A stretch of DNA of 32,774 nt from the NCBI GenBank assembly GCA_049970595.1, contig JBMFMQ010000003.1, forward strand, positions 1 to 32,774, read 5' to 3'. The notes beneath the pieces were generated by a model. That model worked only from the letters and a program-made list of their open reading frames with translations, was not told the origin of the DNA and searched no databases. This DNA is from Candidatus Ratteibacteria bacterium (GTDB taxonomy: Bacteria; Ratteibacteria; UBA8468; B48-G9; JAFGKM01). How positions within the stretch are numbered: the stretch's first letter is position 1; every line of letters starts with the position of its first letter. Below are positions 12,078 through 30,631 of this stretch, one piece after another. A program made the position numbers and the translations under genes.

Positions 12078-12407
12078 ATGAAAAATTTTATTTACATTTT
12101 AATTTTAGTTTTACTTTCAGGTTGCTCATTTATAAAAACAAAAGGAACCTTTCTTGATAAAAATTACAGAGAAAATTATGTTAAAAGTCACCAGGTAAAT
12201 GAGGAATGGAAAAAAAATATAATTGAGGGGAAGATACCAAATGGAATGGAAAAAAAAGATGTTGAAGAGATACTCGGGAAAAATTATTTTGTTTATAAAT
12301 CAGATACAGAGATGATGGAAATATGGTTTTATAAATACTATTATGTAGGATTTGATAAAAACGGTAAAGTCATAAAATTTGGAATTTCTAACCAGAATTA
12401 CAAATAG
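12078..12407 (+). CDS. Small lipoprotein, BamE/SmpA-OmlA-like
   Basis: SD AAAGGAGG. Lipobox LLSGC. GMEKKDVEEILGKN...WFYKYYYVGFDKNGKVIKF resembles the SmpA/OmlA fold pattern. Confidence 0.35.
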   Translation: MKNFIYILILVLLSGCSFIKTKGTFLDKNYRENYVKSHQVNEEWKKNIIEGKIPNGMEKKDVEEILGKNYFVYKSDTEMMEIWFYKYYYVGFDKNGKVIKFGISNQNYK

Positions 12408-13198: not shown

Positions 13199-14142
13199 AT
13201 TTTTGTTTCCTTAAATAATAAAAATAAAAAGAAAATTCCACCAAAGAAACCTGTTATAACTCCAACAGGAATTTCAACAGGTCTTATTAAAATTCTTGAA
13301 ATTGTATCGCATAAAACTAAAAAACAACCACCAGTTAAAAAAGAAAATGGTATAAGTTTTTTATGAATTGAGCCATAAATAGCCCTTACAATATGTGGAA
13401 TTATAAGACCAACAAAACCAATTATTCCTGATAGACAAACACATAAGGATGAAATAAGACAACTTATAAAATAAGCAAAATTTTTTTCAAAATTTACATT
13501 AACCCCAAGCGTTATTGCTTTTTCTTCATCAATACTTAAAATATCATAAATTCTTCCAGAAAAAGTCAAAAATAAAAATGAAGCAAAAATTAAAAAAGAG
13601 GCATAGATTAAAATTTTTTCTGAAAATGATGATAAATCACCAAATAAAAATAAGACAGTTGAATGGAATTTTTCATAATGAGAAATTGAAATTAAAAATA
13701 AAACAAGAGATGAGCATATAAAATTTAAAGAAATTCCAGCAAGAATTATTGAAGAAGTTGAAAATTTTTTTATTATTGATAATGAAATAATTAAAAAAAG
13801 TGAAAAGATAGAACCAAAAAATGCAAAAAATGGAATTGAATATACTTTACCCAATATTGTTCCAATTGCAATACCAAGTGAAGCACCACCAGAAATACCA
13901 AGAGTATAACTTTCAGCAAGTGGATTTTTAAGAACAGATTGTAAAATTGCCCCTGAAATTGAAAGCCCAGAACCAACAATAAATGCACATATTACTCTTG
14001 GTATCCTGATTTTTAGAAAAATTGTCTTTTCAATTTCAGAAAGATTAAAAATATCCTTTAAAGTATAAATCTTTGAACCAAAAAAAATACCAAAATAGAT
14101 TGAAAAAATGAAAAATAAAATAAAAAAAAGATTCTTTTTCAA
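13192..14142 (-). CDS. btuC: FecCD-family ABC permease (corrinoid importer)
   Basis: Polytopic. RIPRVICAFIVGSGLSISGAILQSVLKNPLAESYTLGISGGASLG is the typical FecCD motif. Overlaps its neighbours by 4 and 7 nt. Confidence 0.8.
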   Translation of the reverse strand: MKKNLFFILFFIFSIYFGIFFGSKIYTLKDIFNLSEIEKTIFLKIRIPRVICAFIVGSGLSISGAILQSVLKNPLAESYTLGISGGASLGIAIGTILGKVYSIPFFAFFGSIFSLFLIISLSIIKKFSTSSIILAGISLNFICSSLVLFLISISHYEKFHSTVLFLFGDLSSFSEKILIYASFLIFASFLFLTFSGRIYDILSIDEEKAITLGVNVNFEKNFAYFISCLISSLCVCLSGIIGFVGLIIPHIVRAIYGSIHKKLIPFSFLTGGCFLVLCDTISRILIRPVEIPVGVITGFFGGIFFLFLLFKETKIW

Positions 14143-14651
14143 TATTCAATCCCCTTCCTTGATTTTATTCCTTTATCATATGGATGCTTTATTTTTTTTA
14201 TTTCACTAACAAGGTCTGCCTTTTCTATAATCTTTTTTGTTGCTCCTCTTCCTGTTAAAACAAGTTCAATATTTTCTGGCTTTTGGTCCATTATTTCAAT
14301 TATCTCTTCTTCTTTTAAAAATCCATCTCTTAAAGAAATTAAAATCTCATCGCATATAACAACATCATAATTCTTTTTTTTGAAAATATTCTTTATAAAA
14401 TCAATTCCTTTCAAACATTCTCTCCTTATTTCTTCTTTCTCTACTTTTTCAAAATAAGGATGTTTTTCAGCAAAAGAAAAAAGATCAACACCAATTTTTT
14501 TCAATATTTTTTTCTCATTATAATTTTTTTTGTGGAAAAATATAAAGCATACATTTAAATCATGACTTTTAGCCCTTAAGGCAAGCCCAATTGCTGCTGT
14601 TGTTTTTCCTTTCCCATCTCCAGTGTAAACTTCAACCAGACCCTTTTCCAT
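14139..14651 (-). CDS. cobO: Cob(I)yrinic acid a,c-diamide / corrinoid adenosyltransferase (CobO/BtuR type)
   Basis: VYTGDGKGKTTAAIGLALRA P-loop, DEILISL, 170 aa. Confidence 0.8.
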   Translation of the reverse strand: MEKGLVEVYTGDGKGKTTAAIGLALRAKSHDLNVCFIFFHKKNYNEKKILKKIGVDLFSFAEKHPYFEKVEKEEIRRECLKGIDFIKNIFKKKNYDVVICDEILISLRDGFLKEEEIIEIMDQKPENIELVLTGRGATKKIIEKADLVSEIKKIKHPYDKGIKSRKGIEY

Positions 14652-15369
14652 TTTTAATTACATTCTTTTTTAAAGGATATTTTCCACATGAAAATTTTTC
14701 GCTTTCAGGGCAGTATCCAAGTGTTTCACATTTTGCTCCTGCATCTTCAAAAACTTCTGGTAAATTTTTTTTGCATATTTCAAGCATTTTATATGCAAGT
14801 TCTCTTATTTCCCATTGAGCGCGTGTGCAGCATCTTACTCTGAAAAAATGTAATAATTCCCTTACATTCATAGAAACAACAATTTTTGTTTCAGCAGCAT
14901 TTGGCAGAATATACCTTGCATCCTGATTTGCTTTTTCTCCTTCAATTCCAAGTTCTTTAAATCTTTTAATCATATTTATATAGACATCCCTTATTTTCTC
15001 TATCCCTTCAATAAAATATTTCTTTAAAATTTCATCCTTTTGAATTGAAGGTGGAATTATATATTTAAAATTATCTATTCTTACATATCTCTGACTCTGC
15101 TGTGAGTATGAAGCAATACGATGTCTGACAAGTTGATGGGAAAGTGCCCTTGAAATTCCCTCTATTGCAAAAGTAAATTTAACATGTTCAAGAACACTTT
15201 CATGTCCACTTTTTACTATTTCTCTTACAAATCTCTTCTTTTTCTCCATATCTATTTTTTTACTCTTTTCAAATATATCAAATGCAAATTCAGAAGAATA
15301 ACATTGTCTTGCAGCAGAATAAATAATTTCAACAGGATTTTTGCTCATTTCAATAAGTTCTACTCTCAT
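14632..15369 (-). CDS. thyX: FAD-dependent thymidylate synthase ThyX
   Basis: ThyX signature RHRIASYSQQSQRY. ESVLEHV. ~245 aa. Confidence 0.85.
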   Translation of the reverse strand: MRVELIEMSKNPVEIIYSAARQCYSSEFAFDIFEKSKKIDMEKKKRFVREIVKSGHESVLEHVKFTFAIEGISRALSHQLVRHRIASYSQQSQRYVRIDNFKYIIPPSIQKDEILKKYFIEGIEKIRDVYINMIKRFKELGIEGEKANQDARYILPNAAETKIVVSMNVRELLHFFRVRCCTRAQWEIRELAYKMLEICKKNLPEVFEDAGAKCETLGYCPESEKFSCGKYPLKKNVIKNGKGSG

Positions 15370-15390: not shown

Positions 15391-16191
15391 TTAGTTTAAC
15401 TTCATTATTTCTTTAACAATCTCAACAAAAGATAATGGTGTTGGACTGCATATTTTATCACTATCAATTACAAAAATTTTACCATTTTTAACAGCATTTA
15501 TCATCCTATATTTTCCCCAGTTTTTCTTTTCTTCCTCTGTATCTATTCCCATAGAAGTAATTATTATTATATCTGGGTTTAATTTTATAATTTCTTCAAT
15601 GCTATATATCCCCCCTTTTCCTTCTATGACATTTTTCATCCCAGCAAATTCAATTATATCATTGATAAAAGAATCTTTTCCTGCAACCCACAATGGTCTT
15701 GAACCAACCTGAACAAGAACTTTCTTTTTTTCTACCTTTTCTTTTTTTTCATAAAGTTGCTTTTTAACTTTTTTTATTATATCCTTTGCCTCTTTTTCTT
15801 TTCCAATAATTTTTCCAAGTTTTATAAAATCAAGGCATAATTGCTCAAAATTTAAAGGATATGAGAATATTTCAACTTTTATTCCAAGTTCTTTTAATTT
15901 TTTTATATCTTTTGGATTTGTTAAATTTGTTGCAAATACAATATCTGGCTTTAATGAATAAATCTTTTCAACATTAATATCAATAACATTTCCAACCTTT
16001 TCTTTATATTTTGCTTGGTTTGGTCTTGTGCAATATATAGTATTTCCAACAATTTTATCTCCAAGCCCAAGAATAAAAATATTTTCTGTTATTGCTGGTC
16101 CAAGAGAAACAATCCTTTTTGGTATATTTTCTGAATTTGAAAAAAAAATATAAATAAAAAAGAAAATTAAAATTTTTTTCATTTTGAACAT
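15391..16191 (-). CDS. btuF: Periplasmic binding protein of the BtuF/FhuD class (corrinoid-binding component)
   Basis: Signal peptide. RIVSLGPAITENIFILGLGDKIVG and PDIIIITS motifs of PF01497-type binding proteins. Operon context. Confidence 0.7.
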   Translation of the reverse strand: MFKMKKILIFFFIYIFFSNSENIPKRIVSLGPAITENIFILGLGDKIVGNTIYCTRPNQAKYKEKVGNVIDINVEKIYSLKPDIVFATNLTNPKDIKKLKELGIKVEIFSYPLNFEQLCLDFIKLGKIIGKEKEAKDIIKKVKKQLYEKKEKVEKKKVLVQVGSRPLWVAGKDSFINDIIEFAGMKNVIEGKGGIYSIEEIIKLNPDIIIITSMGIDTEEEKKNWGKYRMINAVKNGKIFVIDSDKICSPTPLSFVEIVKEIMKLN

Positions 16192-17354
16192 ATTTTAACC
16201 ATTATTCCTGCAATAAGACCTCCAATTATATCATCAATAAATGGTGGAAGTTTTTTTATTATTCCTGGTTTGGTTCTATCTATTCTTTCAAATTCAAAAA
16301 GTGCAAGTTTCCCTCCAATATATTCAGCAATCTGAATACCAATAATTTCATCAGCAATCAATTCAACAGGGTCATTTTCATAATCTTTTAAATTTGGGAT
16401 TATACCTTTTTTACCTTCCTCATGTAGTTTTAAACCTGCAATAATTAAAGAAGAAATATTAACATCATTTAAAATTTTCTCAAGTTCTTTCTCAAATAAT
16501 TTTTTAACCTTATTTTTATCGCCAATCTTTTTATCTTCAATATATGTTTCCATTGCTGTTTTTATAATATCTTCCTTTCTTATCCCTCTTTCTCTTAACC
16601 TTTCAATAATTGGTCTATCTATAAATATTTTATTTTGTTTTTCCATACTTTCTTTTATAGCAAAATATACTGTTTTTGCAAGTATTTCTCCAAATTTTGA
16701 ATGACCTCCTGCATATGTTATTTTCTCTTTATCTCCTGAAATAAAAATTATATTATCTGTGCCAGTTCCTGTTGCCTGATTTTCAAGACCACTATAAATT
16801 GAACGAATATCAAAATCCTGAAAAATTTTTGTTTTTGCTTCTGTTATTGTTATCAATGAGTTTAAAAAACCACTTTCTGTCAAAAAACAGTTTGTATAAA
16901 ATAAAACATTTATAGTCCCAATTTTATAAAATTTACCATTTTTTTCATACCAGTTTCCTTTATCAGAAGCAACTGTTAAAGAATTTGATTTAACTCCACA
17001 AGTTGCAAAACAAATAATTTTATAATTTTTAAAATTTTCTTCACAGATTCCGAAGTTTTCAACATCAACACCTGTAAAAAGCAAAGAAATTTCATCTTCA
17101 TTATATCCAAGATTTTTTTTAATTTGGTCTTTATATTTAATCCATTCTTCTGAATTCATTTCCCAGAATCTCCTTGGAACAGAATTTATACCGACAAATT
17201 TTACCTCTTTAAAACCTTCAAGTGTTGACAAAATTTTTCTTTTTTTATCAAAAGAAAATATAAGTGTTTTTGTTTTCTTTTCAAAAATAGAATGTTTTAA
17301 AATATAGGATTTAATTTTTTCTCCCTTTTCTTCAAATAAATTTAAAATTTCCAT
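16179..17354 (-). CDS. cbiZ: Adenosylcobinamide amidohydrolase CbiZ fused to a C-terminal PgpA/CobZ-like domain
   Basis: N-terminal ~250 aa are CbiZ-like (ILSTLEGFKEVKFVGINSVP...TGTGTDNIIF). The C-terminal ~140 aa contain ADEIIGIQIAEYI and PPFIDDIIGGLIAGIM. These resemble the E. coli PgpA motifs DEFIGMWITL and MIDDIVAGVISAGI as I recall them. Confidence 0.65.
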   Translation of the reverse strand: MEILNLFEEKGEKIKSYILKHSIFEKKTKTLIFSFDKKRKILSTLEGFKEVKFVGINSVPRRFWEMNSEEWIKYKDQIKKNLGYNEDEISLLFTGVDVENFGICEENFKNYKIICFATCGVKSNSLTVASDKGNWYEKNGKFYKIGTINVLFYTNCFLTESGFLNSLITITEAKTKIFQDFDIRSIYSGLENQATGTGTDNIIFISGDKEKITYAGGHSKFGEILAKTVYFAIKESMEKQNKIFIDRPIIERLRERGIRKEDIIKTAMETYIEDKKIGDKNKVKKLFEKELEKILNDVNISSLIIAGLKLHEEGKKGIIPNLKDYENDPVELIADEIIGIQIAEYIGGKLALFEFERIDRTKPGIIKKLPPFIDDIIGGLIAGIMVKICSK

Positions 17355-18289
17355 AAAAAGTCCCAGACAAAAAAGTTGAAAATTAAAAAAATAAAAGAAG
17401 TTAAATATGTTATTTTTAAACTCTCAATTATATGATTTAAATTTAACTTTTCTATTTCATCTCCAAGATATGGTTTAAAATTCATCACTTTATTGTAATA
17501 ATTTATCCCTCCAAGTTTTATCCCAAATCCACCTGCATAACAACTTTCAGGATATCCACTATTTGGACTTGGATGTTTTTTTCCATCCCTTATTGAAATT
17601 TTAAAGGCACAAATTCCCTTTCTTTTGTAAATAAAAAATGAAAAAGAGATAAAGAAAATTGATAAACGAGAAGGAAGAAAATTTAAAATATCATCAAATC
17701 TTGCAGAAGTTAATCCAAAGAATTTATATCTTTCATTCTTATATCCAACCATTGAATCAAGAGTATTAACAACCTTATAAAGAAGGCATAAAGGTGCACC
17801 ACCAATAAAACTATAAAAAATTGGGGAAATTATACCATCAACTGTATTTTCTGAAATTGTTTCTATTGTTGCTCTTATAATTTCGTTTTCATCAAGATTT
17901 TCTGTATCTCTCCTTACAACTCTTGATAGATAAAATCTTGCCTTTTTAATATCTTTGTTTTTAAGTGAATTGTAAATAGGAATTGTGTGGTCTTTTAAAT
18001 CCTTCAATGCAATAGATGTATAAATGAAAAATGATGAAAAGAAAAAGTAAAGAAATTTGTTATGTTCAAAAAGAAAACTAAAAAATTTAAAAGATAAAGA
18101 AAATAAGGTAAATGAGATGAAAATTGAAAAGAAAAAGCCACTTATAATTTCATTTTTTATAAATTTTCTAAAAATTTTTTCAAAAATTTTTGAAATAAAT
18201 GAAAAAAATTTAACAGGATGCGGAAAGTATTTTGGGTCTCCAAAAATTAAATCAAGAAAAAATCCAGTTATTGTTGGTAAAGTAAACAT
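17342..18289 (-). CDS. cbiB: Adenosylcobinamide-phosphate synthase
   Basis: LIFGDPKYFPHPVKF N-terminus, membrane protein, SPNSGYPE and GGINYY motifs typical of CbiB/CobD. Confidence 0.8.
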   Translation of the reverse strand: MFTLPTITGFFLDLIFGDPKYFPHPVKFFSFISKIFEKIFRKFIKNEIISGFFFSIFISFTLFSLSFKFFSFLFEHNKFLYFFFSSFFIYTSIALKDLKDHTIPIYNSLKNKDIKKARFYLSRVVRRDTENLDENEIIRATIETISENTVDGIISPIFYSFIGGAPLCLLYKVVNTLDSMVGYKNERYKFFGLTSARFDDILNFLPSRLSIFFISFSFFIYKRKGICAFKISIRDGKKHPSPNSGYPESCYAGGFGIKLGGINYYNKVMNFKPYLGDEIEKLNLNHIIESLKITYLTSFIFLIFNFFVWDFLWKF

Positions 18290-19335
18290 TTTAATTCATT
18301 TAAAAATTTTTCATTTTCATTTCTTTTTCTAACACATATTCTTATAAAATTTCTTCCAAGACCTTTTATATTTGAGCAATCCCTTACAAGTATCCCTTTT
18401 AACTTCAATTTCTCAATAAAAAATTTAAAATTTATATCTCTTTCAATCTTTATAAGGAAAAAATTTGCCTCTCCATTAAATACTTTAACTCCTTGAAGAA
18501 TTTTTAAATTTCTGTAAATATATTCTTTTTCCTCTTTTATCCTCTTTTTAATTTCTTTTAATTCAAAATCTATTAATTTTTGCGCAATATTTTCAGCCAA
18601 ACTATTAATATTCCAAGGATACATATATTTTGAAATAATTTTCGTTAAGTTTTTATCACCAATAAGATAACCAATTCTTAATCCAGGGATAGGGAATATT
18701 TTTGTAAAAGTCCTTAAAATAAGAAGATTTTTATACTTTTTTATTTCAGATACCAAACTTTCTTTTTCTGTAAAATCAATAAATGCCTCATCTATTAAAA
18801 AAATTTCATCTCTATTCTTTTTCAGAATTTCAATAATTTTCTCTTTTTCAATATAAAAACCAGTTGGATTATTTGGATTACATAAAAAAATAGAATCAAA
18901 AAAACTTTTATACTTTAAAATTTCATCAATTCTTATCTCAAAATTATCTTCTTCTTTTGTCTTTAAAAACAAAATTTTTCCACCATTTAATTTAATACTC
19001 CTTTCATATTCTGAAAATGTCGGTATAAAGATTATTGATTTTTTTAACTTTAATGCTTTTGGTATTAAATAGATTAGTTCAATAGAGCCATTTCCAAGAA
19101 TCACATTTTTATAAGAAACTGAAAATTTTTCAGCAATTTTTTCTCTTGTTTTTTTGTATTGACTATCAGGATAAAAAAATATATTTTCAATTGAAGAAAT
19201 AATCATATTTTTTATCTTTTCAAAATCAAAAAAAACATTAACATTTGAACTGAAATCAATTATCTTCTCTTTTTCAAAACCATATTTTTCAATCAACTCA
19301 TAAATATTACCACCATGCTTTAATAATTTTTCCAT
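18268..19335 (-). CDS. cobD: L-threonine-O-3-phosphate decarboxylase (class I/II aminotransferase fold)
   Basis: HGGNIYE...IIDFSSNVN N-terminus, CNPNNPTG, RTFTKIFPIPGLRIGY (PLP lysine). Context between cbiB and cobS. Confidence 0.75.
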   Translation of the reverse strand: MEKLLKHGGNIYELIEKYGFEKEKIIDFSSNVNVFFDFEKIKNMIISSIENIFFYPDSQYKKTREKIAEKFSVSYKNVILGNGSIELIYLIPKALKLKKSIIFIPTFSEYERSIKLNGGKILFLKTKEEDNFEIRIDEILKYKSFFDSIFLCNPNNPTGFYIEKEKIIEILKKNRDEIFLIDEAFIDFTEKESLVSEIKKYKNLLILRTFTKIFPIPGLRIGYLIGDKNLTKIISKYMYPWNINSLAENIAQKLIDFELKEIKKRIKEEKEYIYRNLKILQGVKVFNGEANFFLIKIERDINFKFFIEKLKLKGILVRDCSNIKGLGRNFIRICVRKRNENEKFLNELKCLLYQQ

Positions 19336-20053
19336 TGAAAATTGAAATTATTAAAAGAATTAAAATTTCATTGAACTCAACTATTGCTCCAATTGTATCT
19401 CCAGTTAAACCACCTATTTTTTTAGAAAAAAATTTGTTTAAAATGTATGTCAAAATTATAACAGGTAAAAAAAGTGATAATGAATTTATGCCTCCGGATA
19501 AAAATATGAGCACACATGATAAAATCGTTGAGTAAATAAAAATTTTTCCATTTATATTATCAAAGAATATTTTTGCCTTTCCATAATCTCTTGCATAATT
19601 AAAAAAATAAATTGAATAAACGATTGCCCATCTACTTAAAATTGGAAATAATATAATTGTTTGAAATTTAAAATTTTTTATTGAGTTTAAAAGAAATATT
19701 TTTGAAAGAACAACAAATAAAATTGAAAGAACACCAAAACATCCTATATTTTTATCTCTCATAATTTTAAGTATCTCATTTTTATTTTTCCCACCAAATA
19801 TTCCATCAAAAGTATCTGAAACACCATCAATATGTATTGCTCCGGTTATAAAAATTATGAAAAAAACTGTGATTGTATCAACAAAAATCAAAGAAAGAAA
19901 TTTAAGTAAATATTTATTTATAATTAATGAAAGAAAACCTATAATAAGACCACATAATGGGAAAAAAATCAATGAATATGGTAAGTCATTTTCATCTATT
20001 TCTTTAAATCTTAAAATTGTCAAAAACTGTATTGATGATAGGATTTTATTCAT
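19307..20053 (-). CDS. cobS: Adenosylcobinamide-GDP ribazoletransferase (cobalamin synthase)
   Basis: Polytopic. HIDGVSDTFDG and GGLTGDTIGA motifs. Confidence 0.8.
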   Translation of the reverse strand: MNKILSSIQFLTILRFKEIDENDLPYSLIFFPLCGLIIGFLSLIINKYLLKFLSLIFVDTITVFFIIFITGAIHIDGVSDTFDGIFGGKNKNEILKIMRDKNIGCFGVLSILFVVLSKIFLLNSIKNFKFQTIILFPILSRWAIVYSIYFFNYARDYGKAKIFFDNINGKIFIYSTILSCVLIFLSGGINSLSLFLPVIILTYILNKFFSKKIGGLTGDTIGAIVEFNEILILLIISIFNGKIIKAWW

Positions 20054-21108
20054 TTTATTTCCTTTGAAACGCCTGCTTCTTCAAAAGTAGCCATTTCATT
20101 TAAAATTTTTATACCAGATTCAACAAGAAAAATTCCAAGTGCTGCTCCTGTTCCTTCTCCAAGTCGTAAATTTAAATTTAATAGTGGTTCAAGTCCTATA
20201 TAATCAAGTAAAATTTTATGTCCAGGTTCAGAAGATAAATGTGAAGCAATCATATAATTTTTTGTTATGGGAGAAATTTTATATGCAATTAAAGCACCTG
20301 CACCTGAAATAAATCCATCAATCAAAACAGGAATTCTATTTTTTGCACATCCAATAATTACACCTGCTATTCCACCTATTTCAAATCCACCAACTTTTGA
20401 TAAAACATCAATTGGGTCAGAAGGGTCTGGTTTATTGAAACTTATTGCCTTTTTAATAACATCTATTTTCCTTTTATAAATATCATCACTTATTCCTGTT
20501 CCATATCCAGTTACCTTTTCAACTTCATTTCCTGTTATAACTGAAACAATTGCACTGCTTGGAGTTGTATTTCCAATTCCCATATCACCAACACCAGCAA
20601 TATCTATTGAACTTTTTTTCAATCGTCCTTCAACAATTTCTATTCCATAGTTTATTGATTGAATTGCTTGTTTTCTTGTCATTGCTGGCTGTTTTGTAAA
20701 ATTTTTTGTTCCATAATCAACCTTTTTAATAATAACTTTTTCATTGAAAATATCTTTTTTTACACCAATATCAACAACTATAACCTCTGCACCTACATGT
20801 CTTGCAAGAACATTTATTGCAGCAGTTCCTTTTAAAAAATTATAAACCATCTGTTCTGTAACCTCTTGTGGATATGCACTTACGCCTTCTTCACAAACTC
20901 CATGGTCTCCTGCAAGAGTAAATATAACTTTATTTTTAATTTTCACATCAGTTTTCCCTTTTATTCCACAATAAATAATTGCAAGTTCTTCAAGTTTTCC
21001 TAAACTACCTTTTGGTTTTGTTAAATTATCAAGTTTCTTCTTCGTTTGGTCCATTATTTTTTTATCTGGTAATTCAATTTCCTTTATATAATTTTCAAAA
21101 AACTCCAT
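20050..21108 (-). CDS. cobT: Nicotinate-nucleotide--dimethylbenzimidazole phosphoribosyltransferase
   Basis: KPKGSLGKLEE, GDHGV, GDMGIGNTT, LRLGEGTGAA motifs. Confidence 0.85.
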   Translation of the reverse strand: MEFFENYIKEIELPDKKIMDQTKKKLDNLTKPKGSLGKLEELAIIYCGIKGKTDVKIKNKVIFTLAGDHGVCEEGVSAYPQEVTEQMVYNFLKGTAAINVLARHVGAEVIVVDIGVKKDIFNEKVIIKKVDYGTKNFTKQPAMTRKQAIQSINYGIEIVEGRLKKSSIDIAGVGDMGIGNTTPSSAIVSVITGNEVEKVTGYGTGISDDIYKRKIDVIKKAISFNKPDPSDPIDVLSKVGGFEIGGIAGVIIGCAKNRIPVLIDGFISGAGALIAYKISPITKNYMIASHLSSEPGHKILLDYIGLEPLLNLNLRLGEGTGAALGIFLVESGIKILNEMATFEEAGVSKEIK

Positions 21109-21625
21109 TATTCTTTTCTCCTTTCAATTTTAATGGTATTCCTGAAACAATTAAATAAACATAATCAGAATTTTCTGAAATTAACTGATGAACTTTTCCA
21201 ATTATATCCCTAAAATCTCTTGCAATCTTATTTTCAGGAACTATTCCCCATCCAACTTCATTTGAAACAATTATAGCACAACATTTTTCCTTTCTTATCT
21301 TTATTATCAAATTTTTAACCTTATTTATTATTTCTTTTTCTCCATAATTTTTAAGCATCAAATTTGTTATCCATGTTGTAATACAATCAATAATATAATC
21401 ATTTCCACTTTCTATAAAATTTTCAATATCTATATTTTCTTCAACTGTTTTCCATTCTTTTGGTCTTGTCTTTTTATGTTTTTCTATCCTTTCTTTCATT
21501 TCATCATCAATTTCTTTACCAGTTGCGATAAAAACAACATTTTTAAAATTTTCTTTTGCTATCTTTACAGCAAACTTACTTTTTCCACTTCTACATGGTC
21601 CAGTAATAAAAATTATATTTTTCAT
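21095..21625 (-). CDS. cobU: Bifunctional adenosylcobinamide kinase / adenosylcobinamide-phosphate guanylyltransferase
   Basis: ITGPCRSGKS P-loop, ATGKEIDDEMKERIEKHK, IVSNEVGWGIVPEN. 176 aa. Confidence 0.8.
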   Translation of the reverse strand: MKNIIFITGPCRSGKSKFAVKIAKENFKNVVFIATGKEIDDEMKERIEKHKKTRPKEWKTVEENIDIENFIESGNDYIIDCITTWITNLMLKNYGEKEIINKVKNLIIKIRKEKCCAIIVSNEVGWGIVPENKIARDFRDIIGKVHQLISENSDYVYLIVSGIPLKLKGEKNNGVF

Positions 21626-22351
21626 TTATTCAAGGTCATATAAACTATCATCTTTTGATAAATCTCCAAGTGAAGAATTATATGGACTTGCATTAAATTT
21701 TGCTTTTATTGCCTCAACATGTCCATCACAGAAAGCAACATTTGCAAATCCATTATGTCTGAAATGAACATTTGGTCCACTCCAGGAATAATAAGGGTCA
21801 TTTGGTGCTCTTAAATAATTATTTCCAATTAATTCATTTGTAAAAGAAGACCATGAGGCACTATCACATAATAAGACAGTTTCTGATGTTTTTCTAATTC
21901 TTGATAATCTTGTTGGTGGTGTTGCCTGGCCATCCCATGCTGAATATCCACCTCCAATATATGAAGCATTGTAAGCATATCCTGTAAATGGTCTATCGTA
22001 TGATTTTATTATTTTTTTAGCAGTTGGACATTCAAATATCCCTTTTGTTAAATAACTTCCAATAATTCCTGGTCTATATGTTACCCACCAAGTATCTGTT
22101 GCAAAATCCCATCCAATTTCAGAAGTATATGTTAAATAATATGTGGGCGGGAAATAATCATCATTGTCTTGAACATACATAAGAAAAGCAAGTGTAAGTT
22201 GTTTTAAATTATTCATGCATGTTGCTTGTCTTGCCTTTTCTCTTGCCTTTGCAAGTGCTGGCATAAGCATTGCTGCAAGAATACTGATGATAGCAACTAC
22301 AACAAGCAACTCTATTAAAGTGAAGCCGACCTTTTTTAAATTTTTTTTCAT
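21626..22351 (-). CDS. Prepilin-type N-terminal cleavage/methylation domain protein, H-X9-DG pseudopilin (paralogue 2); first cistron after the B12 riboswitch
   Basis: Start re-set to ATG 22351, preceded by AAAGGAGGGG. The longer track ORF runs into the riboswitch. MKKNLKKVG|[46 protein letters not shown] is an exact H-X9-DG. Stop TAA 21626..21628 directly abuts cobU ATG 21625. Confidence 0.85.
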
Positions 22352-22370
22352 TTTTCCCCTCCTTTCAAAT

Positions 22371-22395
22371 AAAAAAGCCCGCCAACCTGGCGGGC
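22371..22395 (-). terminator. Intrinsic terminator acting as riboswitch expression platform
   Basis: Minus strand reads GCCCGCC-AGGTT-GGCGGGC followed by TTTTTT. It lies between the aptamer and the SD of the pilin-like gene. Confidence 0.75.
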
Positions 22396-22616
22396 TGCAC
22401 CCGATTTCTTTGCCATTACTTTCTGCCCTCGCAGAAAGTAAATTCGCCAATCTGGGGCAGGTCTTCTGACTCGGGCTTCATCCTACTCGGCTGCCTTCCC
22501 ATCCTTTACGGACAGTGGCATTTTGCCTTTCGTCTGCCCTCACAGCTCCGGGGGAGTGGCTGATCATCCATTTATGGACTACAGCACTTCCCTATTAAGC
22601 CATAAAGGCACCCCAG
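22371..22616 (-). promoter_or_regulatory. Cobalamin (B12) riboswitch, aptamer ~22452..22616 plus expression platform
   Basis: This is the only GC-rich stretch in the window. Reverse complement: CTGGGGTGCCTTTATGGCTTAATAGGGAAG...GCCACTCCCCCGGAGCTGTGAGGG...TGCCACTGTCCGTAAAGGATGGGAAGGCAGCC...AGTCAGAAGACCTGCCCCAG. P1 pairs CTGGGG (22611..22616) with CCCCAG (22452..22457). GCCACTG core at 22513..22519. B12 box AGTCAGAAGACCTGCC at 22456..22471. Extra 10-bp hairpin at 22417..22440. Confidence 0.85.
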
Positions 22617-22627
22617 ATTTATATAAA

Positions 22628-22655
22628 ATTATAAAATCAAAAAAATTTTTGTCAA
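22628..22655 (-). promoter_or_regulatory. Sigma70-type promoter driving the riboswitch and B12 operon
   Basis: Minus strand has TTGACA (22655..22650), a 16-nt spacer, then TATAAT (22633..22628). This puts the start ~22620, just upstream of the P1 helix. Confidence 0.6.
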
Positions 22656-22678
22656 GTCAAATTTTTTTGTGATATATT
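22649..22678 (+). promoter_or_regulatory. Divergent promoter for the beta-helix gene
   Basis: TTGTCA (22649..22654), 18-nt spacer ending in TGTGa, TATATT (22673..22678). Its -35 overlaps the -35 of the minus-strand promoter. Confidence 0.4.
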
Positions 22679-22691
22679 TATAAACTAAAAA

Positions 22692-24668
22692 ATGGAAAAA
22701 GTTAATTTAAAAAACGCAGATTTCTTGTATGTGTCAAATGATGGGAATGATTTTTTCAGTGGAAGGAACCCTGAAAAAAAAGAAAATGATGGTCCTTTCA
22801 GAACAATCAGAAGAGCACTTGATGAAATTGTCAGGATAAAAAAGAAAAATAAAGGCAAACTCAAAAAAAATATAATTATAATGATAAGGGGTGGTATCTA
22901 CTTTATTGATGAACCCTTAAATATTACACATGAGCATTCAGGACAAGACAAGTTTTTTGTAATGATAAGAAATTATAAAAATGAAAAAGTTATTATTAGT
23001 GGTGGTGAAAAATTGAGAAATTGGGAAGAAAAAGAAATTGAAGGTAAAAATTGTTTTGTTTTTAATCTTGAAAGAGATATTAGAAATTTCTGGGTAAATG
23101 GTGAAAGAAAAAAAAGAGCAAGGTATCCAAAAAAAGGATATTTAAAAATTGAGGGTTTAGTTGATGAAGATGAAAAGAAAGATTGGAATGAAAGTGTTTA
23201 TAAAATCAGAGTTAAAAAAGAAGATATGATAGAATTTAAAGATTATTGGAATGGAGAAGTTATTCTTATGACGAAATGGGTTGAGTCAAGATTACCAATT
23301 TCTTCTATTTTCCCTGAAAAATATATTATTGAATTTAAAAGAAAAACTGTATTCAAACCTCAAAAAGATGACCTCTATTATATTGAAAATATTTTTGAAT
23401 TTCTTGATAAGGATAGATGGTATTATGATACAAAAGAAAAAAAACTTTACTTTTATCCAGAAAATAAAACACAAATGAAATGGGATTTTATAATTCCGAA
23501 AACTGATGTTATTTTAAAAATTAAAGGAAATCCAGAAGAAAATAAGTTTGTTGAAAATATTTACTTTTATAATTTAACCTTCTCTCACACTGAATGGTAT
23601 TCTTATAAAATGAGTTTAAGAGGGGAAGATGTAGGTGGTTTTACTCAGGCAGCAATTGGTGTTCCAGGGGCGATTTATTGTGAAGGTATGAAAAACTGTA
23701 AATTTGAAAAATTAGAAATATCACATATTGGGACATATGGTATTGAGTTATCAAAAGGATGTCAGAATAATAAATTAATAAACTGTATTTTTTATGATTT
23801 AGGAGGTGGTGGGATAAAAATTGGAGAACCAATTATAAGAGAAGAAGAAAAACTTCATACATTCGGAAATGAAATAAGAAATTGTTTAATAAAAGATGGA
23901 GGTAAGATTTTCCATAGTAGTGTTGGAATATGGATAGGCCAGAGTTATAAGAATAAGATTTTGAATAATGAAATATGTGATTTTTATTATACAGGAATAA
24001 GTATTGGATGGACCTGGGGTTACGGAGAATCACTTGCAAGGCATAATATTGTTAAATTTAATAGAGTTTGCCATATTGGAAAGAAAAAAGATGGAGATGG
24101 TCCAATTTTAAGCGATATGGGTGGAATATATACACTCGGAATTCAGGATGGGACAATAATTTCAAATAATATATTTTGTTATATCTATGGTTATTGGTAT
24201 GGTGGATGGGGTATATATTTTGATGAGGGGAGCACTCATATCATTGCAGAAAATAACCTTGTTTACAATACAACTCATGGTGGTTTTCATCAGCATTATG
24301 GAAAGGAAAATATTATAAGGAATAATATTTTTGCTTTTGGAAGACAACAGCAGATTCAAATAACAAGACCTGAATCACATATAAGGTTTAAATTTGAAAG
24401 GAATATTGTTATAGGAGATACAGAAAAATGGATAGAAGGTGGATTTGATTTCAATTTTATTTTTGAAAAAAATATATACTGGAATTTGAAAGGCAAAGAA
24501 ATAAAGTTTTTTGGACTTACATGGGAAGAATGGAGAAAAAAAGGTATGGATGTAAATTCTTTAATTGCAGACCCTTTATTTTATAATATTAGAAAACTTG
24601 ATTTTAGGTTAAGGAAAAACTCACCTGCTTTCAAACTTGGATTTAAAAAGTTTAAATTACCAGAATAA
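22692..24668 (+). CDS. Right-handed parallel beta-helix repeat protein (pectate-lyase-fold, probable polysaccharide-active enzyme)
   Basis: Repeated short beta-helix turns: NNKLINCIFYDLGGGGIKIG, NEIRNCLIKDGG, NKILNNEICDFYYTGISIG, NNLVYNTTHGGFHQHYGKENIIRNNIF. No obvious signal peptide. Confidence 0.6.
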   Translation: MEKVNLKNADFLYVSNDGNDFFSGRNPEKKENDGPFRTIRRALDEIVRIKKKNKGKLKKNIIIMIRGGIYFIDEPLNITHEHSGQDKFFVMIRNYKNEKVIISGGEKLRNWEEKEIEGKNCFVFNLERDIRNFWVNGERKKRARYPKKGYLKIEGLVDEDEKKDWNESVYKIRVKKEDMIEFKDYWNGEVILMTKWVESRLPISSIFPEKYIIEFKRKTVFKPQKDDLYYIENIFEFLDKDRWYYDTKEKKLYFYPENKTQMKWDFIIPKTDVILKIKGNPEENKFVENIYFYNLTFSHTEWYSYKMSLRGEDVGGFTQAAIGVPGAIYCEGMKNCKFEKLEISHIGTYGIELSKGCQNNKLINCIFYDLGGGGIKIGEPIIREEEKLHTFGNEIRNCLIKDGGKIFHSSVGIWIGQSYKNKILNNEICDFYYTGISIGWTWGYGESLARHNIVKFNRVCHIGKKKDGDGPILSDMGGIYTLGIQDGTIISNNIFCYIYGYWYGGWGIYFDEGSTHIIAENNLVYNTTHGGFHQHYGKENIIRNNIFAFGRQQQIQITRPESHIRFKFERNIVIGDTEKWIEGGFDFNFIFEKNIYWNLKGKEIKFFGLTWEEWRKKGMDVNSLIADPLFYNIRKLDFRLRKNSPAFKLGFKKFKLPE

Positions 24669-27293: not shown

Positions 27294-27305
27294 TAATTTT
27301 TGAAA

Positions 27306-28280
27306 ATGGGAAGAAAAATTTTGGTGGCAGGGGCGTGTGGTTTTATTGGATGGAAAGTAAGTGAGAAATTGCTTGAGAAAGGAGATGAAGTTATTGGAAT
27401 TGATGACTTGAATGATTATTATGATGTTCGTTTAAAAATATGGAGACTTGAAAGGTTAAAAAAATACAAGAATTTTATAGATGTAAAATTTGATATTTCA
27501 AAGGATGAAATAAAGTATATTGTAAAGGAAGCAAAACCTGATATAATAATAAATCTTGCTGCAAGAGCAGGAGTAAGAGCAAGTATTGAAAATCCTGAAA
27601 TTTATTATCTCACAAATGTTATTGGAAATTTAAACCTTCTTGAATGTGCAAAGGATTTCGGAATTAAAAAATTTATTCTTTCTTCAACTTCATCCTTATA
27701 TGCTGGTTTTCCTGTCCCATTTAAAGAAGATCTACCTGTTAACAATCCAATATCACCATATGCAGCAAGTAAAAAAGCAGCAGAAGTTACTTGTTATACA
27801 TATCATTATTTATATGGAATTGATGTTGTTATTTTTAGATATTTTACAGTTTATGGACCATGTGGAAGGCCTGATATGAGTATTTTCAAATTTATAAAAA
27901 TGATAGATGAGGGGAAAGAAATAACTGTTTTTGGAGATGGGACACAAAGCAGAGATTTTACTTATATTGATGATATTGCAGATGGAACTATTTTGGGACT
28001 TAATCTGTTTGGTTTTCATATAATAAATCTTGGTAATAATAATCCACATCAATTGAATGAAGTTATAAAAATTATTGAAAAAAAACTTGGGAAAACAGCA
28101 AAAATTATTTATAAAGATTTTCATAAAGCAGATATTAAACAGACATATGCAGATATTACAAAAGCAAAAAATTTACTTGGCTGGTCTCCAAAAATTGACA
28201 TAGAAGAAGGAATTGAACATACAGTAAATTGGTATAAAGAAAATAAACACTGGATTAAAGATATAGTATTAAAGGATTGA
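27306..28280 (+). CDS. NAD-dependent sugar-nucleotide epimerase/dehydratase (UDP-glucuronate 4-epimerase-like SDR)
   Basis: VAGACGFIGWKV Rossmann motif and YAASK catalytic motif, ~325 aa. ATG 27306 preferred over TTG 27300. Confidence 0.75.
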   Translation: MGRKILVAGACGFIGWKVSEKLLEKGDEVIGIDDLNDYYDVRLKIWRLERLKKYKNFIDVKFDISKDEIKYIVKEAKPDIIINLAARAGVRASIENPEIYYLTNVIGNLNLLECAKDFGIKKFILSSTSSLYAGFPVPFKEDLPVNNPISPYAASKKAAEVTCYTYHYLYGIDVVIFRYFTVYGPCGRPDMSIFKFIKMIDEGKEITVFGDGTQSRDFTYIDDIADGTILGLNLFGFHIINLGNNNPHQLNEVIKIIEKKLGKTAKIIYKDFHKADIKQTYADITKAKNLLGWSPKIDIEEGIEHTVNWYKENKHWIKDIVLKD

Positions 28281-29205
28281 TGGCAAAGGTACTTGTTACT
28301 GGTGGATGTGGTTTCATAGGGAGTCATACTGTTGATAGATTGATAGAAGAAGGTAATGAAGTTTTTGTTATAGACAATCTTTCAACAGGTTTTATTGAAA
28401 ATCTGAATAAAAAAGCAATTTTTTACAATATTGACATACAGAACAGGGATGAATTAAGAGAAATATTTGAAAATCAAAGATTTGATTTTGTATTTCATTT
28501 TGCTGCACAGATAAATGTAAGAAGAGGAGAAGAAGACCCGAATTTTGATATTAATGTAAATGTATTAGGAACATTAAATTTACTTGAGGAATTGAAAAAA
28601 AATCCACCTATAAAAATTATTTTTTCTTCAACAGGTGGGGTTATTTATGGATTGACTAATATATTTCCAACTCCTGAGGATGTTGAACCTTTCCCTATAT
28701 GTATTTACGGAATTTCAAAGTTAACATGTGAAAAATACTATATTCTTACTTCAAAAATTATGGTATTAACTTTGTTTCTTTAAGATATGGAAATGTTTAT
28801 GGACCAAAACAGAATTATTTATCAGAAGCAGGTGTAATCAGTATTTTTATATCAAGGATTCTTGAGAGAAAAGAATGTATAATTTTTGGAGATGGAAACC
28901 AGACAAGGGATTTTATTTATATTGATGATGTGGTTGATGCAAATATTTTATTTATGAAAAATGATGTAAATGGAATTTTTAATGTTGGAACTGGAATAGA
29001 AACATCTGTAAATAGAATTTTTGAGATTATAAAAGAAAATATTGGAAAAGATTGTAAAAAAGTTTATACAAAAGAAAAAAAGGGAGAATTAAGAAGAAGT
29101 TGTATTTCAATTGAAAAAATTAGAAGAAAAACAGGATGGTTTCCAAAATATAAAATTGAAGAAGGGATAAAAAGAACAATTAACTGGTTTTTAAATAAAA
29201 ATTAA
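28277..29205 (+). pseudogene. GalE-like NAD-dependent epimerase interrupted by a single frameshift
   Basis: Frame A (28277..28783) gives VTGGCGFIGSH...YGISKLTCEKY and then nonsense to a TAA. The other frame is open from 28732 and reads KILYSYFKNYGINFVSLRYGNVYGPKQ...GDGNQTRDFIYIDDVVDA... to 29205. Together they form one complete extended-SDR. The A5 run at 28731..28735 is the simplest slip site. Confidence 0.75.
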
Positions 29206-29909
29206 TAGGATGAACTTTCCCATTCAACATCACTTATAAACACATTATAATCTCTAAAAGCAAGATTTAAAACCTTCTGTTTAAAATTATAGTGATGCCA
29301 AAAACATCTAACAATTGGAACCTGACCACCATATCCATGCAATGACTGCCAGATTTTTGCTTCCTTCCAGGTTACAATTCCATCTCCATTTGTGTCTGCC
29401 TGCTGTATTTCTCCTGGTGTGTGAGTACTTTCAAACCATCTACTTTCCGTTGGAGCAAATTCATAAGAATAAGAAGATTTTTCAATATCCGGGTTTCTGT
29501 AGGTGTAGGCAAGTGAATCAAAAGGAGATGGAGAATAGGAATAATATAATTGAACTTTTGATAGTGGAATATCATTTATTTCTGGATAAGAAAGATTACC
29601 ATGTCCTCTTTCTCCTTTATTTAAATCAGTCAAACATATAAATATCTTCCCTTTTCCAAGATAATTACTTCCAAGACCAATTGTCTCACTTTTACATAGA
29701 TTTGAAAGCCATGTTGGATAATCTTCATAATCCTGATAATACATTTCAATTGCAAGTCCAATCTGATGTAAATTGTTTATACAGTTTGCCTGTCTTCCTT
29801 TTTCTCTCGCAGTTGAAAGTGATGGTAATATCTGACCTGCAAGCATTGAAATTATTGCAATTACAACAAGGAGTTCAATTAAAGTAAAGCCAGATCTTTT
29901 AATTTTCAT
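29202..29909 (-). CDS. Prepilin-type N-terminal cleavage/methylation domain protein (paralogue 3, C-terminal H-X9-DG motif degenerate)
   Basis: MKIKRSG|[40 protein letters not shown]. The C-terminus has FWHHYNF...AFRDYNV instead of H-X9-DG. Confidence 0.8.
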   Translation of the reverse strand: MKIKRSGFTLIELLVVIAIISMLAGQILPSLSTAREKGRQANCINNLHQIGLAIEMYYQDYEDYPTWLSNLCKSETIGLGSNYLGKGKIFICLTDLNKGERGHGNLSYPEINDIPLSKVQLYYSYSPSPFDSLAYTYRNPDIEKSSYSYEFAPTESRWFESTHTPGEIQQADTNGDGIVTWKEAKIWQSLHGYGGQVPIVRCFWHHYNFKQKVLNLAFRDYNVFISDVEWESSSY

Positions 29910-30595
29910 TTTTTGACTCCTTTTTCCATTTCTTTTATAACTTGGTAAATATAATTTTTCATTTCGTCATTTTTTTCATTATAATATAAAGCCCATAAAG
30001 ATGTCTCAATTTCTTCATACTTCCCAAAACTTTTCAGATTGTCAAGCGCGCACTTTCTTATATAAATATCCTCATTTTCATTCTCAATAATTTTTAGCAA
30101 TTTATCCTGATATTCTGGTAATTTCATATAGGAGAGTATTTTTATTTTTGTTTCTTTATCTTCTTTGTCAAATCTGTTTATTAAATATTCAATATTTTTT
30201 TTGTCAAATTTTAAAATTGTTTCAAAAGTTATATTCTTAATTGTTTTATCTGGACTATCAAGATATGAAAGAAGTTTATTGAAATCAATCTGTCCTATGC
30301 TATAGGCACATACTCTTTTTATTTCTTCATTTGGTTCTTTTTGAAATACTTCTTCTATCTGGGGTAAAACTTCTTTGATTTTTAAATTTCCAATAGTATA
30401 AATTCCATATATTTTCTCATTTTTATCATTGCTTTTTAAATACTTGAGATATTTTTTTGCTGTAGGTGTTTTATTTCTTTGCGCACTCCATGTAGAAATT
30501 CTGATAATTGAGAGAAAAATAATTCCAATAGTAACCCAAAATACAATTTTCCTTTTTTGATTAAGTGTGTTATAAAATTCAATAAATTTTTTCAT
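29906..30595 (-). CDS. Membrane-anchored HEAT/PBS-lyase-like repeat protein
   Basis: Start set to ATG 30595, because the track start TTG 30631 coincides with a -35 box. One TM helix IVFWVTIGIIFLSIIRISTW. Helical repeats such as EIKRVCAYSIGQI and IYIRKCALDNLKSFG. 4-nt overlap with the pseudopilin gene. Confidence 0.4.
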   Translation of the reverse strand: MKKFIEFYNTLNQKRKIVFWVTIGIIFLSIIRISTWSAQRNKTPTAKKYLKYLKSNDKNEKIYGIYTIGNLKIKEVLPQIEEVFQKEPNEEIKRVCAYSIGQIDFNKLLSYLDSPDKTIKNITFETILKFDKKNIEYLINRFDKEDKETKIKILSYMKLPEYQDKLLKIIENENEDIYIRKCALDNLKSFGKYEEIETSLWALYYNEKNDEMKNYIYQVIKEMEKGVKK

Positions 30596-30602
30596 TTTTT
30601 TA

Positions 30603-30631
30603 ATTGTATTCCAAATAAATGAAAATGTCAA
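30603..30631 (-). promoter_or_regulatory. Sigma70-type promoter giving a leaderless mRNA
   Basis: Minus strand has TTGACA (30631..30626), a 17-nt spacer, TACAAT (30608..30603), then only 7 nt (TAAAAAA) before ATG 30595. No SD. Confidence 0.55.

Follow-up and report, generated by a model that had tools for sequence, protein, structure and literature searches.

The linkage of a cobalamin riboswitch, a gene for a pilin-like protein and btuF is conserved across related loci and is specific to one subfamily of DUF1559 proteins. It is described here for a window of 32,774 nucleotides from Candidatus Ratteibacteria (contig JBMFMQ010000003.1), where the pilin-like gene is the first of a 12-gene corrinoid operon. 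We consider the encoded protein to be probably a B12-repressed component of corrinoid uptake that acts upstream of the BtuFCD ABC transporter. A first-pass annotation, made from the letters of this DNA, had interpreted it as a B12-regulated part of corrinoid acquisition, and our results support that interpretation; the replacement of BtuB, the binding of corrinoids and the location of the protein are kept here as proposals drawn from sequence.

Riboswitch and leader of the operon

The aptamer of the cobalamin riboswitch (RF00174) occupies positions 22439..22630 of the minus strand. In the covariance-model search that the first-pass annotation had suggested, it scored 104.3 bits (gathering score 31.5, E 2.6e-25) and covered the model in full length (positions 1-189 of 189). 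Its fold has a z of -5.9 against shuffles. The P1 helix (CTGGGG/CCCCAG), AATAGGGAAG, GCCACTG and the B12 box AGTCAGAAGACCTGCC are readable in the sequence where they had been placed before, and the B12 box and core motifs align with those of 29 related leaders. The sigma-70-type promoter TTGACA-16-TATAAT (22628..22655, minus strand), which had been called near-consensus, matches the consensus at 12 of 12 positions. The orthologous locus L001 (88% identical) has this 12/12 promoter as well, equally placed with respect to its riboswitch. The stretch had also been considered the only GC-rich one of the window. By 300-nt bins, 22201-22500 is indeed the richest (0.44 versus about 0.27 overall), but it does not stand out alone, bin 901-1200, within another DUF1559 gene, having a GC content of 0.41.

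Just 3' of P1 there is a hairpin (22416..22441, minus strand) present in both the minimum-free-energy and the centroid folds. It had been reported with 10 bp and has 11 bp, and it is possibly a P13-like element of the expression platform. A sequence scan found an intrinsic-terminator-like hairpin of 9 bp (7 G-C) with a U-run (22366..22396, minus strand), the stem of which, at 22396..22376, is followed by TTTTTATTTG, in agreement with the first-pass reading. This hairpin is the sole terminator-like site within 21000..22800. Of 48 related leaders, 44 have a comparable hairpin and U-run after the aptamer and ahead of the start codon. It is presumed to be the B12-dependent OFF element. Folding of the window leader revealed no clean antiterminator pairing. 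In an alternative fold, the 3' strand of P1 pairs with AAUCGGGUGCAG just before the terminator; since this pairing barely overlaps the terminator stem, the switching mechanism is kept as inferred. The Shine-Dalgarno region AAAGGAGGGG (22356..22365, minus strand), read in the sequence, ends 4 nt before ATG 22351, as previously described.

A promoter-like site at 21639..21612, considered as an independent promoter of cobU, was rejected because the cobU ATG precedes its -10 box and, furthermore, because matches of 9-10/12 are common in this AT-rich DNA.

Gene content of the operon

The pilin-like gene (21626..22351, minus strand) encodes a prepilin-type DUF1559/H-X9-DG protein of 241 amino acids, recognized by Pfam and NCBIfam matches. 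Its TAA directly abuts the ATG of cobU (TAAATG junction), which encodes adenosylcobinamide kinase/guanylyltransferase (21095..21625, minus strand; PF02283 with 196 bits, NF004469 with 198 bits for a cut-off of 161). Pfam and NCBIfam models also identified cobT, cobS, cobD (threonine-phosphate decarboxylase), cbiB and a cbiZ-cobZ fusion (16179..21108, minus strand), a block of genes for corrinoid remodelling and nucleotide-loop assembly with overlaps of 4-29 nt. A btuF-like gene (15391..16191, minus strand) encodes a periplasmic corrinoid-binding protein, matching PF01497 with 108 bits and scoring below the cut-off of the BtuF model NF002894. Profile matches were found for thyX, cobA/btuR, btuC (FecCD family) and btuD (ABC ATPase) (12398..15369, minus strand), and the operon ends with btuD, followed by a gap of 358 nt. 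The gene order is pilin-like gene, cobU, cobT, cobS, cobD, cbiB, cbiZ-cobZ, btuF, thyX, cobA, btuC and btuD. The junction with cobU and the overlapping or nearly abutting genes downstream were confirmed as first annotated.

Two further DUF1559 paralogues are present in the window (733..1488 and 29202..29909), giving three DUF1559 genes in these 33 kb. Neither the window nor any related locus examined showed genes for a prepilin peptidase or for pilus or type II secretion assembly; therefore, any filament would need machinery encoded elsewhere.

The pilin-like protein

The 241-amino-acid protein scored above the cut-offs of Pfam N_methyl (25.1 bits; cut-off 21.2), NCBIfam TIGR02532 (26.5; cut-off 16.3), DUF1559/SBP_bac_10 (PF07596, 51.2 bits; cut-off 23.3) and the H-X9-DG C-terminal domain TIGR04294 (21.4; cut-off 19). 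By both family models it is, at the level of sequence, a prepilin-type member of DUF1559/H-X9-DG, as had been proposed; the motif corresponds to H199-x9-D209-G210. The N-terminus has the features of a class III signal peptide, with the basic leader MKKNLKKVG, Gly at -1, Phe at +1, Glu at +5 and a hydrophobic helix, and the predicted cleavage site is G9|F10. The AlphaFold2 model (pLDDT 93.3) shows a helix of 51 residues (12-62) and then a beta-rich globular domain, as in a pilin fold; the globular domain alone, modelled with a shallow alignment, had a pLDDT of 35. The best Foldseek matches of the model were the pilins 3sok and 1ay2, which are weak (E 0.18-0.64). Foldseek against the PDB gave no match at E <= 0.001, leaving the globular domain without a solved relative there, and a profile search of the PDB matched pilin N-termini only. 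There was no sequence or fold match to the solved B12-binding proteins BtuF, BtuG, BtuH, transcobalamin, intrinsic factor and BtuM. This makes membership in those families less likely and does not lower the chance that the protein works like a B12 binder.

The protein resembles PilA, GspG and ComGC in its class III signal peptide features and in its long helix followed by a beta domain. However, its globular domain is larger and its gene lies in a vitamin uptake operon rather than in a pilus or secretion cluster. Scores were far below the equivalog cut-offs of GspG (TIGR01710, 42.8 versus 88.85), PilA (NF041775, 43.3 versus 400) and ComGC (33.5 versus 75), and the GspG and PilA models align to the protein at the N-terminal helix only.

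DUF1559/H-X9-DG proteins are distributed among Planctomycetota, Verrucomicrobiota, Lentisphaerota and relatives, and the family comprises 231,015 clusters at E <= 1e-10. Single planctomycete genomes have been described with 68-74 paralogues, two of which are essential in Planctopirus limnophila, and no assigned function was found in the literature (PMC10632474, PMC2754498). C45, C108, W81, Y100 and H199-x9-D209-G210 of our protein are residues shared by the whole family. The riboswitch-linked subfamily is marked, in addition, by conserved aromatic and polar residues that generic DUF1559 proteins do not have: about 35 of its conserved positions are seldom shared (<30%) by generic members. The subfamily-specific residues include Y71, Y72, D82, R120, Y127, Y131, N177, R181, Y238 and the pair H196-F197. 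It is a distinct and tight group, with about 40 clusters at 50% identity scoring >200 bits out of >200,000 family clusters, and the only DUF1559 group found here with a riboswitch link.

Conservation of the riboswitch linkage

Relatives of the protein were collected from 80 metagenome loci (39-91% identity), of which 68 had enough upstream DNA to be informative. A strong riboswitch of the cobalamin clan lies directly upstream on the same strand in 64 of these 68, and two more have weak AdoCbl-like matches; the median distance from the end of the riboswitch to the start codon is 141 nt. A few relatives have no riboswitch (L165, L167 and L173). The controls were 80 generic DUF1559 loci with <=40% domain identity, taken from a full-length-alignment scan of genome contigs that yielded generic paralogues only, because the N-terminal pattern FTLIELLVV dominated the full-length alignment. 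A riboswitch was found in 0/57 of the control loci (p = 2.8e-31). After dereplication at 90% identity 47 of 51 clusters are riboswitch-led, and at 70% identity 22 of 26 (p = 2e-16 versus controls). Among control loci, the presence of a riboswitch tracks the similarity of the globular domain to the subfamily. About 16 GC-rich riboswitches recognized by Rfam escaped a covariance model built from five close leaders (R1), and a trimmed core model (R2) was also used for scoring the loci. The GC content of the leaders ranges from 0.30 to 0.68 across related loci.

In a second, more distant clade (31% identical), a riboswitch leads 5 of 6 planctomycete loci. One of these is in the complete genome of the cultured Fuerstiella marisgermanici (CP017641.1), with the gene at 8743484..8744410 of the complement strand and the riboswitch at 8744590..8744816. 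The pairing of riboswitch and pilin-like gene recurs in dozens of bacteria, mostly uncultured.

Downstream genes and the outer membrane

Downstream genes were surveyed by tblastn in the 60 loci with enough downstream DNA. Same-strand genes for B12 transport or salvage were found in 48 of them, so that homologues do lie behind cobalamin riboswitches and beside cob or btu genes, as the first-pass annotation had expected. BtuF is encoded downstream in 43/60 loci and directly adjoins the pilin-like gene in 24/60, a btuF homologue being its commonest neighbour in the other loci. While the pilin-like gene is constant, the downstream genes vary among btuFCD, MetH modules with btuFCD, cobUTS, cobA, thyX, cobD and cobC. 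The description of the gene as welded onto a corrinoid salvage operon therefore holds for the window genome, but what is conserved beside the gene in other loci is the transporter btuFCD, and btuF in particular, rather than the nucleotide-loop salvage genes. Riboswitch-led operons also contain genes unrelated to transport, thyX and split MetH modules, and association alone is therefore no proof of a transport role. No B12 gene was called downstream on the same strand in L001 and L097, and no btu gene was called beside the pilin-like gene in L172.

In E. coli, BtuB-TonB transport of cobalamin across the outer membrane feeds BtuFCD. The window operon resembles this system in having BtuF, BtuC, BtuD and repression by a B12 riboswitch, but differs from it in that the pilin-like gene is the first regulated gene and the operon and its flanks have no TonB-dependent receptor. 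Such a receptor was found in none of 84 loci (operon and flanks, up to about 7 kb from each gene), which is compatible with a replacement of BtuB at the outer membrane.

Surface lipoproteins encoded in B12-riboswitch-controlled btu loci, such as BtuG and BtuH of Bacteroides, catch corrinoids and feed the TonB-dependent BtuB. They are the closest functional analogy to the role proposed here, in which a non-transporter protein from a B12-riboswitch-controlled locus would catch corrinoids before these reach the cytoplasmic membrane. Our protein differs from these lipoproteins in its prepilin-type signal and in having the architecture of a pilin. It matches them neither in sequence nor in fold, and no BtuB is encoded near its gene. 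Capture by pilins is known from DNA-uptake competence pili and pseudopili, which catch extracellular DNA for transfer into the periplasm. Planctomycetes offer a further precedent for substrate capture in their dextran-binding fibres (PMC5394234), the players behind which are still unknown (PMC12673574). However, the substrates of these pili and fibres are DNA or polysaccharide, and no vitamin link has been described for them.

Proposed role and alternative explanations

In the mechanism that we propose, transcription would start at the TTGACA-16-TATAAT promoter. Binding of cobalamin to the aptamer would let the terminator hairpin form and turn off the whole operon, while scarcity of B12 would lead to read-through and to synthesis of the pilin-like protein first, followed by the salvage enzymes and BtuFCD. 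A prepilin peptidase would process the protein at G9|F10, and the hydrophobic helix would serve as its anchor, either to the inner membrane or within a pilus or pseudopilus assembled by machinery encoded elsewhere. The subfamily-specific globular domain would then bind corrinoids on the outer side of the cytoplasmic membrane and hand them over to BtuF. We infer the OFF-switch logic, prepilin processing, corrinoid binding and the hand-off to BtuF. A wider proposal, which as a whole we regard as tentative, is that in the Planctomycetota-Verrucomicrobiota-Lentisphaerota group, Omnitrophota and Ratteibacteria, B12 may cross the outer membrane through a pilus or pseudopilus capture device instead of the TonB-dependent BtuB, with this DUF1559 subfamily as the B12-specific subunit; by extension, the DUF1559 paralogues, tens to hundreds per genome, may be interchangeable substrate-specific subunits of one general pilin-based system for nutrient uptake.

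Pilin-type architecture and conserved riboswitch control would also suit an adhesin or pilus subunit induced by B12 starvation that binds no corrinoid and brings the cell into contact with B12 producers or with surfaces; uptake itself would then proceed through BtuFCD and another outer-membrane route. The loci L001, L097 and L172, with no btu gene called beside the pilin-like gene, and the pilus genes and host-dependent traits described for Omnitrophota (PMC10066038) favor this explanation. We nevertheless consider it unlikely, as the adjoining btuF (24/60 loci) and its presence in the operon (43/60) fit a direct transport partner better, and the strongly conserved sequence of the globular domain, even between distant lineages, suggests a fixed small-molecule ligand and not variable partner surfaces. 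A membrane-anchored periplasmic protein or chaperone for corrinoid processing, in which H196, H199, D209 and H211 modify or re-ligate corrinoids (for example by removal of the upper ligand) before BtuF or CbiZ, appears quite improbable. The invariant His and Asp of the H-X9-DG region, the subfamily-specific H196-F197 and the corrinoid-remodelling genes co-encoded in the window speak for it, and there is a precedent in the B12 transporter BtuM, which also performs decyanation. On the other hand, the fold search revealed no resemblance to an enzyme, and H199, D209 and G210 are common to the whole DUF1559 family, including many paralogues without a B12 link, which makes a structural role, or one in a shared function, more likely for these residues.

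In a family so large, with two more paralogues in the same window, a DUF1559 gene could also have landed behind a riboswitch by chance and have no role in B12 metabolism. This is very improbable and already contradicted by the comparative data: the linkage is confined to one subfamily, is kept over 22-47 dereplicated lineages with differing downstream genes, and is absent from the generic paralogues (0/57), while the ranges of protein identity (39-91%) and leader GC (0.30-0.68) argue against copies of one mobile segment. A component of corrinoid uptake upstream of BtuFCD is the reading that we prefer.

Implications for B12 uptake and the DUF1559 family

Our search of the literature found no paper tying DUF1559, prepilin or pseudopilin proteins to B12, which agrees with the earlier statement that such proteins are not described members of B12 regulons; as far as the literature was searched, the link is undescribed. 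B12-riboswitch regulons have repeatedly led to new B12 biology, including transporters, accessory binding proteins and B12-independent isozymes. The ligand-specific conserved context reported here provides the first concrete hypothesis for what a DUF1559 protein binds, and it is directly testable because the cultured Fuerstiella marisgermanici has a riboswitch-led copy. If the protein acts in uptake, it would help to explain how a 1.3-kDa vitamin is imported where btu operons lack a BtuB gene, and would have a tie to the composition of the substrate-binding fibres of planctomycetes (PMC5394234, PMC12673574). If the wider proposal of interchangeable capture subunits proves true, the B12-linked subfamily would be the first DUF1559 group with an identified ligand.

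The riboswitch-led operon

On the minus strand, a sigma-70-type promoter (TTGACA-16-TATAAT, 22655..22628) with a 12/12 consensus match leads into a full-length cobalamin riboswitch aptamer (22630..22439), in which the P1 strands, the AATAGGGAAG element, the GCCACTG core and the B12 box are found. The RF00174 check on this strand gave 104.3 bits (gathering score 31.5), E 2.6e-25, covering model positions 1-189 of 189. There is a hairpin 3' of the aptamer (22441..22416), which folds with 11 bp and not the 10 bp first described, followed by a terminator-like hairpin with a U-run (22396..22376), the sole such site within 21000..22800. Next come AAAGGAGGGG (22365..22356) and the pilin-like gene of 241 aa (ATG 22351, end 21626), whose stop abuts the cobU start in a TAAATG junction. 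Promoter, riboswitch, terminator, start codon, prepilin-type gene and junction are thus all present in 22655..21626, as the first-pass annotation had it. The stretch had also been described as the only GC-rich one in the window (GC about 27%). The bin 22201-22500, comprising the 3' part of the aptamer and the expression platform, is indeed the richest (0.44), but bin 901-1200 reaches 0.41.

Eleven genes, overlapping or nearly abutting, lie 3' of the pilin-like gene in the order cobU, cobT, cobS, cobD, cbiB, cbiZ-cobZ, btuF, thyX, cobA, btuC and btuD. The sixth (16179..17354, minus strand) encodes CbiZ (adenosylcobinamide amidohydrolase) fused to a CobZ/PgpA-type alpha-ribazole phosphatase, an arrangement like that of the bifunctional CbiS, whose model it matches at 180 bits, under the cut-off of 250. 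The gene thyX (14632..15369, minus strand), encoding flavin-dependent thymidylate synthase, places a folate-cycle enzyme under B12 control, and is also found immediately 3' of the pilin-like gene in two other loci, L125 and L128.

The pilin-like protein

The protein is matched above cut-off by the Pfam families N_methyl and DUF1559/SBP_bac_10 and by two NCBIfam models, one for the prepilin cleavage/methylation domain and one for the H-X9-DG C-terminal domain. Its N-terminus has class III (prepilin) signal features: the leader MKKNLKKVG, Phe +1, Glu +5 and a hydrophobic stretch. A confident AF2 model (pLDDT 93.3, pTM 0.85) predicts a helix of 51 residues and, after it, a domain rich in beta structure. 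A PDB sequence search matched only pilin N-terminal helices, and Foldseek returned no match at E <= 0.001, the best weak ones being pilins. From these three results, the predicted architecture is pilin-like, with a globular domain that has no solved relative and no likeness to a known B12-binding protein. Type IV pilins and type II secretion pseudopilins come closest to the protein in structure, although it misses the pilin/pseudopilin equivalog cut-offs by a wide margin. Positions C45, C108, W81, Y100 and H199-x9-D209-G210 are family-wide, being shared with generic DUF1559 proteins, whereas about 35 are specific to the protein's own subfamily. Many of the latter are aromatic or polar, such as Y71, Y72, D82, R120, P121, G124, Y127, Y131, S164, N177, N178, R181, H196, F197 and Y238. 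This residue pattern is as expected from a dedicated ligand site, but is not proof of one.

Conservation of the riboswitch and the pilin-like gene

Among the closest homologues, at 60-88% identity, the source names include Candidatus Ratteibacteria and Omnitrophica/Omnitrophota. Contigs with an 88%-identical orthologue have an RF00174 riboswitch (111 bits) immediately before this gene and unrelated genes behind it, with btuF and cobA 7 kb off. Orthologues with 62-69% identity show the order riboswitch, pilin-like gene, homocysteine S-methyltransferase module, btuF, btuC, btuD. We gathered 80 metagenome-contig loci (39-91% identity) with the alignment restricted to the globular domain, and detected cobalamin riboswitches with two covariance models built in this analysis and Rfam. 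Twelve loci were uninformative, the gene being at the contig edge. A strong same-strand riboswitch was found in 64 of the 68 informative loci, with a median of 141 nt between its end and the start codon; L105 and L125 have sub-threshold AdoCbl riboswitch (RF01482) matches ending at the start codon, and two loci gave no riboswitch with these models. After dereplication, 47/51 informative clusters at 90% identity and 22/26 at 70% have the riboswitch. A terminator-like hairpin with a U-run separates aptamer and start codon in 44/48 leaders, GC-rich ones included, which suggests a conserved transcriptional OFF switch. Tandem complete cobalamin aptamers precede the gene in L152 (6290-6433 and 6561-6703) and L156 (3087-3237 and 3366-3517). 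In L130/L132 (6017..6820 and 6836..7564) and L111 (about 7653), one riboswitch is followed by a tandem pair of DUF1559 pilin-like genes, which may encode a major and a minor subunit. An additional near-identical riboswitch copy is present in L130 (3033-3182), beside mobile-element-like genes.

Whether the placement is due to chance mattered most, given how abundant DUF1559 genes are: with a limit of E <= 1e-10, the family profile matches 231,015 clusters in a representative library, and the window has two more paralogues. The control set comprised 80 loci of generic DUF1559 genes in species-representative genomes, and in just 6 of them a cobalamin-clan riboswitch was found, adjacent or in the same operon. 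Five of these could be scored against the globular-domain profile (L012 could not) and rank 2, 3, 4, 7 and 9 of 70. None of the 57 controls scoring <40 bits against this profile, with enough upstream DNA, has a riboswitch (relatives vs controls, Fisher p = 2.8e-31; 2e-16 dereplicated at 70%). The link proposed from the single locus is therefore conserved and subfamily-specific. As for the other paralogues of the window, 733..1488 (plus strand) is directly upstream of a gene for a 1037-aa LamG/CBM9/GH2-like protein (1504..4617, plus strand), and 29202..29909 (minus strand) is immediately upstream of its partner, a HEAT-repeat protein gene (29906..30631, minus strand), a hint that different cargo or enzyme genes accompany different DUF1559 paralogues. 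Near the latter, adjacent plus-strand ORFs of 168 aa and 91 aa (28277..28783 and 28930..29205) match one GDP-mannose-dehydratase/epimerase-type protein, the first its N-terminal and the second its C-terminal part, with an intact paralogue adjoining (27300..28280); the pair appears to reflect a frameshift, a split gene or a sequencing error.

Via the Kuenenia control locus L015 we reached a planctomycete clade whose identity to the window protein is about 31%. The riboswitch lies directly before the gene in L015 and in 4/5 further loci (L172, L174, L175, L176). L172 is from the cultured Fuerstiella marisgermanici (complete genome CP017641.1, 8743484..8744816; RF00174, 115 bits). Within the flanking DNA covered, no btu-type gene was called in L172 or L174-L176; in L175 the next gene encodes a DUF6580 membrane protein. 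In L014 (4759..7825, a Phycisphaerae genome) and L018 (4828..7765, a Chthoniobacteraceae genome), both from the Planctomycetota-Verrucomicrobiota group, two ORFs without family matches, one of them in L018 with a PEP-CTERM end, stand between riboswitch and DUF1559 gene and may be additional B12 regulon members.

Downstream partners and proposed role

A tblastn census took in the 60 loci that have 900 nt or more of downstream sequence and detected, on the same strand and within 6 kb, a B12 transport or salvage gene in 48: BtuF in 43 (immediately adjacent in 24), BtuC in 28 and BtuD in 28. Further followers are MetH modules (S-methyl_trans, Pterin_bind), cobU-cobT-cobS, cobA, cobD, thyX and His_Phos_1 (cobC-like). 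Riboswitch and pilin-like gene together form the constant unit, whose commonest partner is the transporter, above all BtuF; the first-pass annotation linked the gene to corrinoid salvage, which is true in the window, but these salvage genes are one variant among several. In L005-L011, L106-L108, L113, L122, L130, L132 and L150, the pilin-like gene is separated from btuFCD by stand-alone MetH modules: a homocysteine S-methyltransferase domain (PF02574), accompanied in some loci by a pterin-binding domain (PF00809). It is unexpected to find pieces of a B12-dependent enzyme controlled by a B12 OFF switch.

In the best-supported reading, which is probably correct, B12 would repress the pilin-like gene through the riboswitch, and the protein, matured by prepilin processing, would capture corrinoids outside the cytoplasmic membrane and feed them to BtuF-BtuCD. 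The protein may work as a periplasmic binder tethered to the membrane, or as a subunit of a pseudopilus or pilus that extends to the cell surface; genes for pilus or secretion assembly were not seen in the loci examined. That it also replaces BtuB for outer-membrane passage is a tentative idea, which fits the lack of TonB-dependent receptors near pilin-like genes (none in a set of 37 representative ORFs, each 500 aa or longer, from 84 loci). An adhesin induced by B12 starvation, binding no B12, is rather unlikely, and a periplasmic corrinoid-processing protein somewhat more so. A mere passenger gene is contradicted by the linkage statistics and hardly credible.

The closest functional analogues of such a corrinoid-capturing protein are BtuG and BtuH, accessory B12-binding lipoproteins in riboswitch-controlled btu loci of Bacteroides. 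They are partners of BtuB, and are unrelated to the pilin-like protein in sequence and fold. In the literature searched, mentions of DUF1559 always describe a large paralogous family with no assigned function (PMC10632474, PMC2754498), and a 2025 review regards the players of fibre-mediated uptake in Planctomycetes as still unknown (PMC12673574). Our literature search found no paper joining DUF1559, prepilin or pseudopilin with cobalamin, in agreement with what had been presumed at the outset. The operon type is known, but a pilin-type component of a riboswitch-controlled B12 uptake operon is, as far as that search shows, undescribed. The proposed role would give the very large DUF1559 family its first ligand hypothesis, one that is testable in a cultured organism.
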